A DNA stretch of 64,000 bases from Fimbriimonadia bacterium. Lineage in GTDB: Bacteria; Armatimonadota; Fimbriimonadia; Fimbriimonadales; JABRVX01. Numbering within the stretch: the stretch's first letter is position 1; every line of letters starts with the position of its first letter. The stretch is taken from the NCBI GenBank assembly GCA_041483895.1, contig JBGPGO010000002.1:1-64000 (forward strand). Direction: 5' to 3'. Position numbers: made by a program. This document shows positions 9,001 to 18,000 of the stretch, piece by piece.

Positions 9001-12000
9001 GAATCGCCCTGTGGGCTTCGGGCATCCGCGCCGGCGATGAGGTGATCATTCCGCCCTACACGTTTCTTGCCACAGCCACGTCCGTGTTGGAGTGCAACGC
9101 TACGCCCGTCTTCGTCGACATTCAGCCTCACACCTTGAACATGAATCCTGAGCTCTTGGAGGCCGCCATAACGGATCGGACGAAGGCGATCGTCCCCGTC
9201 CATCTCGGCGGCTGCGCGGCGGACATGGACGCCATCAGGAACATCGCGGAACGGCACAATCTGATCGTGATGGAAGACGCCGCTCATGCACACGGCGGTC
9301 AGTACAAGCGCAAGCGGCTTGGATCGATCGGCCACCTTGGCTGCTTCTCACTCCAGGCGTCGAAAAACCTGAATTGTGGCGAGGGCGGCGTGATTGTCAC
9401 ATCGGATGACGCTCTGGCGGAGGAATGCCGCGCGATTCATAACTGCGGCCGCACGTCCAGCGGAAACTGGTTCGACCGAAATCTATTGAGCGGCAACTAT
9501 CGGATGACCGAATTCCAGGGGGCGATTTTGAATGCCCAGATGACGCGGCTGGACGAACAAATCGAGCGCCGGGAACGCAACGCGGATCGCCTCACAAAAC
9601 GTCTCGACGGCCTTCCGGGAATCGTTCCCCAAAATCGCACGTCAGACGAAACACGAAAAGCCTACCATCTCTATTCCTTCTTGTATGACGATGCCGTGTA
9701 TGGGGTGCCACGCTCGGTATATATTCAGGCGCTCCGGGCCGAAGGCATTCCCGCGAGCGAAGGCTACACGGTCCCGCTTTACCGCCAACCGCTTTTCACT
9801 CAGCGCGGCTTCGGTCCCTACACCGCGGCTTCATCGTATGATTATTCGTCCGTCAACTGCCCGGTGTGCGACGACGTATGCGCATCTCATGGCGCGTGGC
9901 TGCTGCACTACCTGCTGCTGGGGGATGACGGCGATTCCGATGACATCGCGAGCGCCTTCGAGAAGCTGTACGAGAATCGGAATGCCTTGAGGGAGATCCC
10001 ATGTACTTAACCGGCGCCGCACAAATCGATATCACTCCCGACTGGCCCGTTGATCTCTGCGGATTTGTGGCACGCGAGCAGCCAAGCACGGGCATCCATG
10101 ACCGGCTCTACGCTCGCGCCCTGTACCTCGAGGGAGGCGGGAAGCGGCTGCTGTGGCTCCACGCCGATCTGCTCGGTTTTCCGGGCTTCTATGCTGACTA
10201 TATCAAATCGCTGTTGCATGAATGCGATGGCTTGGAGGAGCATGAGGTGATGATCTCCGCAACCCACACGCATTCCGGTCCCGCGACTCTGCCGCTGTTC
10301 GAATGCGGTGAGATTGATCCCAAATACCTGTCGCTCGACGACTGCCTTTTGACCCGCCAGCTGCTCGCGGTGTCGGAGGCGGCGATGCGCGATACCGAAC
10401 CCACTCGTGCATGGCATTGCGAAGGAAAATCCGATCTGTGCATCGACCGCCGCGGCTTCTCGACCGCCCACGTCGATCCGATCGTCGGCGTCGTTGGATT
10501 TCGCAGAGAGGACGGCAGCTACAAGGCGGTCATCGCCAACTATGCGGTGCATCTTGTCGCGATGGGTGGAGCAAATCGGATGATCTCCGCCGACATGTTT
10601 GGTGCGGCATCAAGGGCGATCCAGGGCGCGCTCCCGGGGGTGCCGGTCGTGTTGTTCACTGCCGGGGCATGCGGCAATCTTAACCCGCCGGAGGTCGGAG
10701 ATGACTTCCCGCAAATGGAGCGGTGGGGCGGCGGTTTGGGTGACATCGTGGTTGCATCGCTCAAGGGCGCGGAAGCGGTCGCGGACGGGCTGTCCAGTTC
10801 CTTGATCCGGCAAACAGTGCCCTTTCCGACACTCACTCCGACAACAGCGAAGGAGTTCGCGGACCGCCTCCGTTTGGAGGTCGAAGGAAACGAATCCCCC
10901 ACCGCCAACCGGATCAGAAAGGCATGCGATCGTTGGGAAGCGAAACGGGAGAATCAGCCGAACAGCCTCACGGTTCCCATCCAAACGATCAACATCGGCG
11001 GCATTCGATTTGTCGGGATTGGCGGCGAGATTTTTTCCATCGTCACCCCACTCCTCCGCCGACATTTCGGAACACCGACTTACACGGTGAGTTATGCCAA
11101 CGACGTGATAGCATACTTTGCCCCTTCCGCGGCATACTTGGAGGGAGGGTACGAGTTGGAAAGCGCCCCCATCTTCTTCGGCACCCCGCCGATCCCAATG
11201 TATACGATTGAAAGCATGATGCTTGCGTCTACGCGGGCCTAGGTAATTGGAGATTGATCGGATCCGGCAAGACGGCCCGCGTCTACCCTAATGGATTGAA
11301 CGGTTCGATATCTCGCACAAACTGGTTGGAGTCATCCACCAAAATTATCTTGGGCCGCAAGGGTTCATCGGTGAGGGCAAAACTTACGATGATCAGCCTG
11401 TCTCCGGCATTCACCTTGTAGGCTGCGCCGCCGTTCAGCCCGCATACTCCAGGCCCCCCACCCATGGCATACGTGGTGAAACGCTGTCCGTTCGTCACGT
11501 CCCAAACGTGGACAAGCTCGCCGTCGATCATGCCGACCCGCTCCATCAACGACCGATCGATTTCAATACTTCCGATGTAGTCGGGATTTGTGTAGCTTAC
11601 CTTTGCGTGGTGTATTTTGCTTTTTAGAAGTTGGATGAGACGCATGCGGATGACCGTTTTCCTCGTGTGATGTCAGGGCGCGCTGCCGGGCCAATGCGCG
11701 TGCGTCCAACGCTCGGCGCCGGACCGACAAGAAGCCGCCGCAGGCCATGATACCCGCGCCCAGCCACACGAGAATCGTAAGGGGTTTGTGGAACAGCTCC
11801 ACCGGCAAAAGGTCGGTGATGGTCCCCAATTGGAAAAGGATCGGCCCATTCATCCCTTGGGGCGGTCCAATCGACGCGCCGATCCCCTGTCCGAGGTCCT
11901 GAGGCATTGCCTGAAGGCCATCCTCCGTCATTTGGAGAGCCGGCTCCACGTCGAACGAACCGGTGGGATGGACCACGTGAAAGTGGGCGGAAAAAGTGGT

Positions 12001-15000: not shown

Positions 15001-18000
15001 GTACCCGCATGATCGCCAGGCCGATGGCCATGTAGCCGACGAAGGCCGACCAGAAAATCTTCTTGTATGTCGGGTCGAGGCCGGCGCTGGAGATCAGGGT
15101 GTTGTTGGGATGCAAGGTCGCGAACACCCTGGGGATGACGATCATCAAGAACGGCACCGTCGCCATCGCGAACACCGCGTATCCCGCCGAAAGCACCATC
15201 CTCCGCCGATCATCGGGTATCGAGCCGCGCAGGGCAAAGTAGGCGGCGTAGATGAGAAGCTGGGCAACGATGGTGGTTTGCCGCGGGTCCCAGTTCCAAG
15301 GGGTGTTCCATTGCATATAGGCGAAGATGGAGCCGGTGACCGTAGCCAGAACGCACATCAGCGTTCCCATCTCGAGGGCGGCTACGGACTTGATGTCGTC
15401 CAGCGGGAGCTTTAGCCGTAGAACCCGAATCGCATACCAGGCCCCGATGCCGAAGAACACGATACAAGAGATTGCGGCAGGGACGTGAAAGAAAATGATC
15501 CGCGCTGCCTCTGGCTTGGAAAATCCCTCTGCCGGCGGCGCCTGGTACGCGGCAACGATGATGACGGCCATAAACAGCCATATCAATAGCAGAGCCCAAG
15601 GGGTTTTCATTCTTTCCATATTGCGTCAAACAGCCAAAATCCGGCCGCGCCGATGGCAATCGTCCATCCCAACATTCCTACGTTGCCTTGCCAGCCGATT
15701 GTGGCGGCGGCCGCTCCCAACCCGGCCTTCGTCGTAGAAACCGCCATTGCAATCATCGGTACAAGTACCGGCAAAGACAGCACTCCTACCAGGGATCCCC
15801 GGCTGCCGGCCCGAGCGACCAGCGCTCCACTGATTGTGACGCAGACGGCCAGCCCGATGCTGCCATTGATTATTCCGACACAAAATATCAGCCAATCCTC
15901 AACATGTATCCCTAGGAATAGGAGGCTCAGGGGAATCAAGATGACTTCTGAGGCCAGCAGAAGCGCCCCATGAAACAGCATCTTGCCGGCCAGCGCCGCC
16001 GAGGGCCGGGCCGCAAGCCGCAATAGGTCCGCCGTGCCCTGCTCCTCTTCTAAAACGAACCCGCGGGCCAGCCCCGTAACCCCGGCGAATACGAGAGCGA
16101 CCCAAAGCAGTCCAGCCTGGCCTTCCGGCGTGAGGGCGGAGTTGGCCGTGGCAAGACCCATCGCCACAACGGTCATGACGGCAAAGAGCAGCGCGGTGTA
16201 GACGCCCTGTCGCGTACGCCATTCGACCCGTAGGTCTTTGGCGAGAACGGCGAGGGTCTCAGACGCCCAGGTGGAGCCGTGCGTCCCCGTACCGGTACTC
16301 GTTTGTATCGTTTGTGGCGAAGAGGGCGATGCCTCTGCGTCTTTGGTCATCGAGGATGCCATCTAATACCTTTCGGCCCGCATCGTCCATGCCGGCGGTG
16401 GGCTCGTCCAGAAGCAGGATCGGGGGTTGGTGCTGGGTGGCGAGGGCGAGGCGAAGCCGCTGCTTCATCCCTGTCGAGTAGGTATCCACTCGGTCGTGAC
16501 CGCGGCCGCCCAATCCCGCCCGGTCCATTGCCTCTTCCGCCTGGGTCACCGTCGTGGACTGTCCGCGTAGCTTCGCGAGGAAGCGGTAGTTCTCTATCCC
16601 GGTCAACGCTCCATACAGCGCCAACTCCGGCGAAGTGAGGCCGATCATGTTGCGTGAAACCCCCTCCCCCGCTTGCGGTGACTCCTTAACCGCCTCCCGC
16701 GCTTGCGGTGACTCCTTAACCCCCTCCCCCGCTTGCGGGGGAGGGTTGGGGTGGGGGCGGATTCCGGTGTTGGGGTCTTTGGGGTCGGCGGACGGCCAGA
16801 CATCGGCGGACGAGGACCCCAACACAACGTTGTCAATGTCTATCGATCCCTCCGTCGCGGGCAGGAGGCCGGAGAGGACCTTGAGCAGCGTGCTCTTGCC
16901 GGAGCCGTTAGCCCCGCTCACAACCAGCACCGACCCGCCCGCCAGGTTTAGATCGAGCTGCCGGAACACCCACCGGGCGCCAAATCTTCTTCCTAACCCC
17001 GAAGCCTGAAGCCGTATGGATACCATCCGCCGGATTATACCGACCAGGCTGTGCTATACTTTTCGACCGCCATGTCTCTCTCGCTGGCCAAACGCATCGC
17101 AGCCATCCACGCCTCCCCGACGCTCGCAATGTCGGCGCGCGTTGCGGAAATGCGCAAGAATGGCGCGGATATCATCTCCTTTGGTGCCGGCGAACCGGAT
17201 TTTCCGACCCCGGACGTGATTTGCGAAGCCGGCATCGAGGCCATTCGGACGGGGCACACCAAATACACCGCCTCCGCCGGCACGCCGGAATTGCGGCAGG
17301 CGGTCGCCGAGAAGCTGCGGCGCGAGAATCACATCCGATACGAGACGAACGAGGTCTGCATCACGTGCGGAGCAAAGCACGCCGTGTACCAGGCTCTCAT
17401 GGCGCTGTGCGAGGAAGGCGATGAGGTGATTCTGCCCGCGCCGTACTGGCCCACCTATGTCGAACAGATCAAGCTTTCCGGCGCGACCCCCATTATCGTG
17501 AACTGCAAGCCGGAGAACGGCTATCTGCCCGATTATGACGATCTGCGAGCCGCTGTCTCTCCGCGGACCAAGGCGTTCCTGTTGACCACTCCGCACAACC
17601 CGACGGGCGCCGTAACACCCCGATCGGCGCAGAAAGAGATTGCCGCACTCGCCCTAAAACACAATTTCTGGGTGATATCGGACGAGATTTATGAGAAGCT
17701 GGTGTATGGCTACGCGGAGCATCACAGCTTTGCGGCGTTGGGAAAAGAGGTCCACGATCGCACGGTCACCGTGGGAGGCGTTTCGAAGACCTACGCCATG
17801 ACCGGTTGGCGAATCGGGTGGGTCGCAGCGCCGCAGCCGGTCGCAAAGGCGATCAACGAGCTGCAGGACCAGGTGACCAGCAATCCCTCCTCCATCTCCA
17901 TGCAGGCGGCGTTGGCCGCTCTCCGCGATGGGGATGCCGATGTGGCCCGAATGCGCACAGCCTTTGCCGAGCGCCGGGACGTGATGTACGACGAGCTGAC

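Follow-up and report, generated by a model that had tools for sequence, protein, structure and literature searches.

Relation to described systems

Environmental haem auxotrophs, Armatimonadota among them, that respire aerobically without haem synthesis have been described (PMC11139205, PMC12381374, PMC11788075, bioRxiv 2021.01.11.426183), and the available passages of these sources report that they often have no receptor and carry Dpp and HmuTUV-like candidates. The genome analyzed here resembles them. According to the accessible part of PMC11788075, candidate transporters are expressed by a member of its own class with ACIII and no haem synthesis; Supplementary Data 18 gives their names as HmuV and ChaN. 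Fimbriicoccus is a predicted haem auxotroph in the accessible part of PMC12381374. Haemophilus influenzae is likewise a diderm haem auxotroph with Dpp-type uptake but, unlike this genome, has ferrochelatase and several TonB-dependent receptors (PMC6550540).

Auxotrophy, missing receptors and uptake candidates are already in print for the class; the new part is a trans-outer-membrane conduit. Haemophilus influenzae makes multihaem c-type enzymes via Ccm, and we know of no outer-membrane conduit in this species. MtrCAB was found in three phyla, with Armatimonadota not named among them (PMC8805035). No description of an MtrCAB-like conduit in Fimbriimonadia was found in the literature searched, and the passages available from PMC11139205, PMC12381374, PMC11788075 and bioRxiv 2021.01.11.426183 make no mention of such conduits. 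A search of 12 of the 20 supplements to this literature turned up neither MtrA nor MtrB.

The ccm operon

The window is the 64,000-nucleotide stretch at the start of contig JBGPGO010000002.1 of a Fimbriimonadia bacterium. Pfam profiles bore out the Ccm operon placed by the first-pass annotation at 11563-17026, with CcmF, E, C, B and an ABC ATPase on the minus strand. The features of the window are as follows:

11563..14100, minus strand, ccmF, haem lyase, 845 aa (Pfam Cytochrom_C_asm 111 bits and CcmF_C 75 bits)
14101..14493, minus strand, ccmE, haem chaperone with a KCPSKY motif read from the sequence (Pfam CcmE 65 bits)
14552..14812, no strand, REP-like palindromic repeats between ccmE and ccmC
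14840..15619, minus strand, ccmC, WWD haem-handling protein (Pfam Cytochrom_C_asm 66 bits)
15607..16362, minus strand, ccmB (Pfam CcmB 79.6 bits)
16259..17026, minus strand, ccmA, ABC ATPase (Pfam ABC_tran 85 bits)
20113..23592, plus strand, Planctomycete-type dihaem protein (PSCyt1/PSCyt2/PSD1)

By Pfam profile CcmA, B, C, E and F are all encoded, and neither CcmG nor CcmH was found within the operon. The ccmC product scored 73 bits with the NCBIfam ccmC model, below the cut-off of 186. CcmE carries CxxxY (KCPSKY) where HxxxY is usual, a motif recovered in 12 of 20 relatives' loci, and ccmF adjoins ccmE in all 20; the CcmE gene occurs in 61/61 Fimbriimonadales genomes. A CcmABCEF set with a CxxxY CcmE is what we take to be Ccm System I*. 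The REP-like repeat has 72 copies across the genome, and a repeat is inserted in frame in ccmA at 16653-16766.

Haem synthesis in the genome and the order

As previously annotated, the genome has no haem-synthesis gene: GlutR_dimer (HemA), ALAD (HemB) and ferrochelatase gave no hits, and HemC, HemD, HemE and ChdC were not found either. Nine hem proteins from prototrophs of the order, used as tblastn queries and as profiles against all six frames, detected no orthologue in this genome; they matched only a UroD-like protein, an FAD oxidoreductase and aminotransferases of other kinds, all with scores far under those of members. A motif search found nothing AhbC/D-like among 11 radical-SAM proteins. 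HemW, the CtaA-CtaB fusion, the HemJ-like UPF0093 protein and aa3 (in an ACIII/aa3 cluster) are present, as had been reported.

The accompanying claim of an order-wide loss fell, because the earlier sample had missed the prototrophs. Ferrochelatase is present in 14 of 121 Fimbriimonadales, ALAD in four of the five of those tested, and a nearly complete hem operon surrounds ferrochelatase in 12 of the 14. The ALAD of this operon carries the label Fimbriimonas ginsengisoli.

TonB, receptors and ExbD

The reported absence of TonB receptors and ExbD also held: the order's own receptor profile and ExbD gave no match in this genome, nor did the plug family, which matched in just 3/14 controls (none in Thermus, Deinococcus, Thermotoga or Synechococcus). 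ChuA/S/X/Y and ECF CbiQ (EcfT/CbiQ) had no match in the genome. No CydC/D model was among the matches at E 1e-100, and the four ABC exporters matched MsbA-like models.

Among relatives, TonB-receptor-like genes occur in 43/121 Fimbriimonadales. One family accounts for 14 of 20 fetched loci, where they are mostly followed by a gene for a YfiR-like or binding protein and one for a sensor kinase. None of the six scanned that had a match passed a haem-receptor cut-off, and they were rejected as haem receptors. Two genomes have, next to hemW, a gene with a plug domain; it encodes no barrel, is absent here and was also rejected. ExbD was found in 9/14 ferrochelatase-positive versus 8/107 ferrochelatase-negative genomes, a link confounded by kinship and by size (15 of 17 ExbD genomes have at least 3.5 Mb). 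Since 99 of the 107 ferrochelatase-negative genomes have no ExbD, TonB cannot be the haem route of the order. For this genome, and for the greater part of the order, there is good support for a haem auxotrophy that does without TonB.

Multihaem proteins and the MtrCAB-like conduit

The first-pass count of 18 multi-CXXCH proteins with 83 sites was reproduced as ORFs but includes two non-cytochromes: 3 of the sites belong to a valyl-tRNA ligase and 2 to a DUF4145 protein. The corrected figure is 16 proteins and 78 sites, a count of genes and not of expression, to which the "large scale" of the haem demand is limited. The dihaem protein of the window is one of the 16, and 10 have at least four sites. 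Two loci on other contigs encode porin–cytochrome pairs:

C9:156982-160904, MtrAB-like porin–cytochrome pair with a hexahaem lipoprotein
C18:1689-4174, second MtrAB-like porin–cytochrome pair

The conduit resembles MtrCAB/MtoAB/DmsEF (PDB 6r2q; PMC8805035) in having a decahaem protein, a 26-strand barrel (in the predicted model) and a multihaem lipoprotein, in that same gene order. The decahaem protein has nine CXXCH sites and, unlike the known systems, a tenth site of the form CX4CH. With TIGR03508 (DmsE), the C9 protein scored 196.3, above the cut-off of 192.2, and the C18 protein 183.2, under it. The barrel adjoins the decahaem gene in 20/20 loci. It also differs in its length of about 550 aa and in having no Pfam MtrB_PioB match; the top structural match of the model is MtrB (6r2q_B; TM 0.69, E 8.6e-14), followed by a TM of 0.44. 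A lipoprotein with 6–8 CXXCH sites, in place of the ten of MtrC, was found in 16/20 conduit loci and has a weak MtrC domain match. The hosts, in contrast to those of the described conduits, are mostly unable to make haem: of the 107 ferrochelatase-negative genomes, 29 carry the decahaem gene, single-contig ones among them. At the level of genes and predicted models the conduits are real, and they may transfer electrons across the outer membrane.

Candidate uptake components

The first-pass annotation found no known uptake-type gene, which is contradicted by a ChaN-family protein, one Dpp system and a BtuCDF-like class III ABC transporter. Dpp is absent from two of five relatives, one of them single-contig. 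The remaining candidates are:

C19:19886-26859, SLH-anchored OmpM-like porin, three copies
C3:260726-261652, exported ChaN-family protein (PF04187, 191.5 bits versus a cut-off of 27.7)
C4:189035-190021, class III ABC permease (fecCD)
C14:73457-74206, class III ABC binding protein
C6:185489-186196, class III ABC ATPase

The porin model (pLDDT 87.7) has no plug domain and, by our own count, 20 strands. OmpM1, its best Foldseek match, differs in having a barrel of 16 strands. VIA-align ranked OprD/OpdK channels first (Z 18.6); these channels are narrow. An SLH domain, a helical stalk and an unplugged barrel are features in common with OmpM1/SlpA of diderm Terrabacteria (PDB 8bym, 7zgx). The porin is encoded in 61/61 genomes and is equally common in haem prototrophs.

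The ChaN-family protein is like the haem-binding proteins ChaN/PhuW in its export and its score far above the cut-off, and 2g5g is its sole PDB match. About 50 relatives share 39–57% identity, eight of them labelled Fimbriimonadia/Armatimonadota. In contrast to ChaN/PhuW, there is no adjacent receptor, a lipobox-like motif was found in 0/50 sequences, and S, G or A occupies the column aligned to a Tyr of the C. jejuni protein. That Tyr is presumably a haem ligand, and the C. jejuni protein presumably has a lipoprotein anchor. The Tiki-type Glu/His site is kept, and His191 is invariant in 51/51 close relatives, though not in a distant set. No conserved uptake neighbours of the gene were found in the relatives' loci.

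The class III system has Btu best matches, which fall below the NCBIfam cut-offs, and looks B12-specific. A Deinococcus protein among the top matches to its binding protein sits in a cobalamin-salvage cluster. NrdJ, which is B12-dependent, passes its cut-off in this genome; with B12 needed and TonB absent, this larger tetrapyrrole presumably enters without TonB. A second class III binding protein, from one family, has no signal peptide and was discarded as an uptake part, as was a small barrel immediately upstream of fecCD, present in just 2/20 loci.

Proposed route and alternatives

With a probability of roughly 40%, haem enters through the OmpM-like porin without TonB, stays with ChaN or in the membrane, and is then captured by CcmC on the periplasmic face, each step being one that we infer from gene presence and absence, a conserved operon and model folds. 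The auxotroph would import intact haem through parts from known families. Haem would diffuse across the outer membrane, most likely via the SLH-anchored porin, and would then be bound by the exported ChaN-family protein or partition into the inner membrane. The available part of a preprint (PMC13192879) reports that a bacterium lacking surface receptors achieves capture by membrane partition. CcmC, the proposed capture site of borrowed haem, and CcmE would pick it up at the periplasmic face, and CcmF would attach it to c-type cytochromes, so that the multihaem load would need no cytoplasmic importer. Outer-leaflet entry to CcmC is left open in the accessible passages of PMC9616876 and PMC10663686; against periplasmic capture, those of PMC12077264 and PMC11868835 also report transport of haem from inside by CcmCD. 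A smaller cytoplasmic need (cytochromes b, haem O/A, HemW) may be covered by membrane flip, Dpp or the BtuCDF-like ABC. Haem would supply the two MtrAB-like pairs, a Cyc2-like barrel, ACIII and the Rieske/b complexes.

Of the uptake reading in the first-pass annotation, haem auxotrophy without TonB survives, and an importer of unknown kind was not borne out: no conserved unknown gene was found in about 120 relatives' loci, known TonB-independent parts exist (porin, ChaN, Dpp, BtuCDF-like ABC), and no new importer was identified in the genome. It is doubtful that haem is taken across one or both membranes by an importer of its own from a family not yet described. Such an importer would fit the missing classical receptor, the several barrels without a Pfam match and the 60% of environmental auxotroph genomes without a receptor, for which the available part of PMC11139205 proposes unknown ones. 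Conserved unknown neighbours were nevertheless found neither around ccm, fecCD or the conduit (20 loci each) nor around the class III binding protein (30) or ATPase (29), and neither of two His-rich barrels, one of them the COG4313 barrel, turned up in any of five relatives with the queries used, in a search with no positive control. This evidence is weak, as the profiling covered a minority of the envelope proteins. Less probable is the single-copy class III ABC as haem importer or as carrier of both haem and B12. Its permease occurs in 60/61 genomes and its binding protein in 46/46, no cobalamin riboswitch lies near the three genes, an IsdG-like ABM gene stands beside the binding protein in 4/30 loci, and it figures among the candidates given in the accessible part of PMC11788075 (Supplementary Data 18). 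The ATPase has a haem ABC ATPase as best NCBIfam match (219 bits, cut-off 261), which one relative passes (269), but long ATPase forms match a corrinoid ATPase best. All nine best PDB matches of the binding protein are BtuF, 22 of 30 score nearer the cobalamin-cluster protein than ChuT, and the system is retained in haem prototrophs too. The haem-ligating Tyr of HmuTUV/ChuTUV binding proteins is lacking: 28 of 30 sequences show a gap at the column of the ChuT Tyr, and there is no conserved Tyr, His or Met beyond a CDYP motif common with BtuF.

Loss of a hem operon into an assembly gap is very unlikely. The genome is 95% complete in 43 contigs and the order's pathway is a single block of about 10 kb, so that the nine hem absences amount to one observation. 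Ferrochelatase is, however, absent from both other genomes of the same family and occurs in 0/19 and 0/15 genomes of two further families; ALAD is absent from one tested genome of the same family and from the single-contig genomes G129, G138 and G222. Harder still to credit is haem synthesis from a precursor taken up from outside, or by enzymes that went unrecognised, with the HemJ-like gene as a remnant: the UPF0093/HemJ-like protein scores 70 bits, below the HemJ cut-off of 138, and no ferrochelatase, ChdC or AhbD-like protein was found in the genome. A small demand, with conduits that are seldom expressed or carry little of their haem, so that a slow leak of haem is enough, is somewhat unlikely and is compatible with the porin–ChaN–CcmC route. 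The 78 sites are gene counts, the decahaem gene was not found in 107/151 genomes, and acI bacteria grow on 10–100 pM haemin (bioRxiv 2021.01.11.426183, available part). Against this, each of the five families has kept the conduit operon whole, and it includes a ccmF gene in 12/20 loci, which suggests that the conduit is in use.

Implications

Many Fimbriimonadales might, on a speculative view that we consider rather unlikely, be electroactive haem parasites. Their MtrCAB-like wires would be built wholly from neighbours' haem, entering without TonB by a porin–ChaN–CcmC route that bypasses the cytoplasm or by an undescribed receptor family, and the order's TonB would serve iron for haem makers and have been lost by borrowers.

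The haem supply of free-living receptorless auxotrophs is an open question in the available part of PMC11139205, and three named candidate proteins are now on offer for haem uptake. The order is a natural comparison, with close relatives that have or lack one hem operon and isolates on both sides. Armatimonadota would join the phyla in which Mtr-like conduits occur and, if the reading is true, extracellular electron transfer would depend on haem cross-feeding.

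Ccm operon and multihaem load

The Ccm operon reported by the first-pass annotation was recovered in full, with the following features in and beside it.

11563-17026, minus strand: ccmF, ccmE, ccmC, ccmB and the ABC ATPase gene ccmA
14552-14812 and 16653-16766: 24-nt palindromic REP-like repeat, in the ccmE/ccmC gap and in frame within ccmA
17051-18924: aspC-rnc, adjoining ccmA

CcmE was found in 61/61 genomes of the order Fimbriimonadales searched; in the genome under study (G000) its C-terminal end is KCPSKY, the Cys variant of System I*. The repeat has 72 copies in the whole genome, 22 of them within called genes, and HemW bears an insert of similar look. 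In 10 of 20 relatives aspC-rnc adjoins fecCD instead. Genes for BamA, TamB, lipid A and Lpt indicate a diderm envelope.

An ORF call of G000 gave the same raw count as before, 18 proteins with at least two CXXCH motifs (83 sites). A valyl-tRNA ligase and a DUF4145 protein proved to be false cytochromes, and their removal lowers the true load to 16 proteins and 78 sites. Other redox and iron loci were also observed.

L004:7894-9258 (G000 C11:89890-91257): Cyc2-like monohaem barrel, upstream of a cluster with Rieske, cytochrome b and octahaem genes
L104:1973-7950: molybdoenzyme of the DMSO-reductase family, accompanied by an Fe-S/monohaem subunit, a Rieske protein and a cytochrome b
L104:8317-10405 (G000 C7): FeoB in two overlapping reading frames

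Haem synthesis in the order

GlutR_dimer, ALAD and ferrochelatase had no match in G000, and tblastn and profile searches found no orthologue of the nine hem proteins of the order's prototrophs, in agreement with the absence claimed earlier. ALAD is present in 111 of 151 genomes of the phylum and in none of the 15 order genomes within that set, in keeping with the first-pass annotation. The claim of an order-wide loss did not hold in a larger sample: ferrochelatase occurs in 14/121 order genomes, all of one family, and four of the five positive genomes tested have ALAD. Ferrochelatase is missing from G000's own family (0/3) and from three others (0/19, 0/15 and 0/1). The ALAD of one hem-operon genome carries the source label Fimbriimonas ginsengisoli.

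A single operon, hemA-C-D-B-chdC-L-E-Y-cpfC, was seen at 12 of the 14 ferrochelatase loci, with hemL or hemY absent from the stretch in three; one remaining locus is ended by the contig end and the other has only hemY and cpfC. Because the pathway forms one block, its absence from the 95% complete G000 assembly is one observation, not nine. The weight for true absence is borne by the relatives, not by this assembly alone; single-contig genomes G129, G138 and G222 have no ALAD. That an assembly gap hides the operon is very improbable. A lone HemJ-like UPF0093 gene (L018:566-973) lies upstream of a MoeB-like gene.

In hemB trees the order's 14 rows formed one clade (SH-aLRT 95-96), its neighbour being a single further row from Armatimonadota; monophyly together with the phylum was not rejected (p-AU 0.61; 56 of 112 rows). 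Repeated loss of the hem genes fits these data. The operon may also have been regained, given that an Acetothermia record shows this gene order too.

TonB-dependent uptake

The reported lack of a TonB receptor and ExbD was upheld: G000 has no plug domain and no ExbD, no match to a profile built from 13 receptors of the order, and no detectable ChuA, ChuS, ChuX or ChuY. Plug domains occur in 43/121 order genomes, and the loci examined mostly resemble receptor-YfiR-kinase signalling modules. Cross-counts, which assume that one set of 121 genomes underlies the ferrochelatase, plug and ExbD searches alike (their settings and family tallies being identical), left 33 of these 43 without ExbD and divided the 17 ExbD-positive genomes into 9/14 ferrochelatase-positive and 8/107 ferrochelatase-negative ones. 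The association (Fisher p 3e-6; 9e-5 within the one family) is inflated by kinship and genome size. Its direction is opposite to the textbook one: haem makers keep TonB, while borrowers are mostly without it.

Proteins of about 615 aa (L300:6179-8056, L301:5560-7410, L302:5820-7679 and L303:6038-9844) join a plug domain to a soluble domain and a helical tail. They have no barrel, their hosts are ExbD-negative, and in two of these genomes the gene adjoins hemW.

MtrCAB-like conduit

G000 has two gene pairs in which a DmsE/MtrA-like protein is followed by a barrel without Pfam match. The cytochrome carries nine CXXCH motifs and one conserved CX4CH, hence ten haems. Among 20 conduit loci, a barrel follows the decahaem gene in all, a 6-8-haem lipoprotein is present in 16 and ccmF in 12 (a second copy in relatives G206 and G165); a monohaem protein and a multihaem-cytochrome b fusion are often present. 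The barrel model (pLDDT 82; 26 strands by our count) matched MtrB best, at TM 0.69, the next match reaching 0.44.

The decahaem protein was found in 44/151 genomes and all five families. Taking the handles of that search up to G256 to fall within the same 121 genomes, the non-matching genomes being only partly listed, it occurs in 29/107 ferrochelatase-negative versus 6/14 positive genomes (p 0.23), and in 21 genomes with no ferrochelatase, ExbD or plug. The single-contig genome G222 has the whole conduit operon and no ALAD, and it does not appear among the genomes matched for ferrochelatase, plug or ExbD. Faulty assembly therefore does not account for the combination.

Haem auxotrophy and the missing receptor are already known. 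Passages of PMC11139205 place Armatimonadota among haem auxotrophs, with 60% of genomes lacking a receptor, and part of PMC12381374 covers Fimbriicoccus; sections of bioRxiv 2021.01.11.426183 deal with acI, Dpp and HemTUV. In PMC6550540 the diderm haem auxotroph Haemophilus influenzae uses Dpp-type uptake and possesses ferrochelatase as well as several TonB-dependent receptors. For this class PMC11788075 describes ACIII where haem synthesis is lacking, and its Supplementary Data 18 contains haem-transport rows (32/39 rows examined). What looks new, judged from sequence and models, is that an order whose members are mostly haem auxotrophs and mostly lack TonB carries a predicted MtrCAB-like conduit, its prototroph relatives serving as controls. 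PMC8805035 records MtrCAB from three phyla, Armatimonadota not being named among them. Among the top-ranked papers of literature searches that mostly did not cover subscription journals, none paired such a conduit with Armatimonadota or with haem auxotrophy, which is limited evidence for novelty.

Divergent from a conduit operon, L002:2188-5622 holds an unclassified porin, a ZnuA-like binding protein and an ABC-3 permease. Four barrels were noted at L014:817-3378, L015:461-3955, L013:45-1718 and L016:1685-2884: three are large and share an N-terminal motif recalling SprA, the other is PorV/FadL-like, and they are possibly a secretion system for the many PEP-CTERM-like proteins.

Candidates for haem uptake

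C3:260726-261652: exported ChaN protein
C4:189035-190021, C14:73457-74206 and C6:185489-186196: class III ABC permease, binding protein and ATPase
C19:19886-26859: SLH-anchored OmpM-like porin

A lead in a paper's supplement led to ChaN, which the first-pass annotation had missed in stating that no known uptake-type gene was present. It has about 50 relatives at 39-57% identity; it has neither a Tyr at the aligned position nor a lipobox, but its His191 is invariant in the clade. In G165, fecCD, purC, glyS and chaN lie on one strand (L035:2586-7919).

The class III ABC is one system scattered on three contigs, its parts near universal in the order (permease 60/61, binding protein 46/46, also 34/41). 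It is read from sequence as a putative B12 importer: the binding protein is BtuF-like without the ChuT tyrosine, and a ribonucleotide reductase of G000 depends on B12. Against a B12-only role, the ATPase of one relative exceeds the haem-ATPase cut-off; dual use of BtuCDF for haem is improbable. G000 has one Dpp system, missing in 2/5 relatives, and neither an ECF module nor CydDC was found there. In one genus an IsdG-like ABM gene sits between a BtuF-like gene and dnaK (L064, L067, L069 and L071).

The SLH-anchored porin, present in 61/61 genomes, was the only universal outer-membrane candidate found. Its model has 20 strands and no plug, and resembles OmpM1 (Foldseek) and OprD-type channels (VIA-align). 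On gene content and models we favour, at a probability of about 0.4, a route in which haem would diffuse through this porin, be buffered in the periplasm by ChaN or the membrane, and be captured by CcmC on the periplasmic face. Sections of the structural papers PMC10663686 and PMC9616876 leave outer-leaflet haem entry open, and the abstract of PMC13192879 reports that haem is captured by partition into the membrane in a bacterium lacking surface receptors. A low real haem demand, compatible with this route, is somewhat doubtful, and an importer of an undescribed kind is unlikely; the importer may be built from known parts. The appeal of porin diffusion with CcmC capture is that c-type cytochromes, which account for most of the load, would require no cytoplasmic haem.
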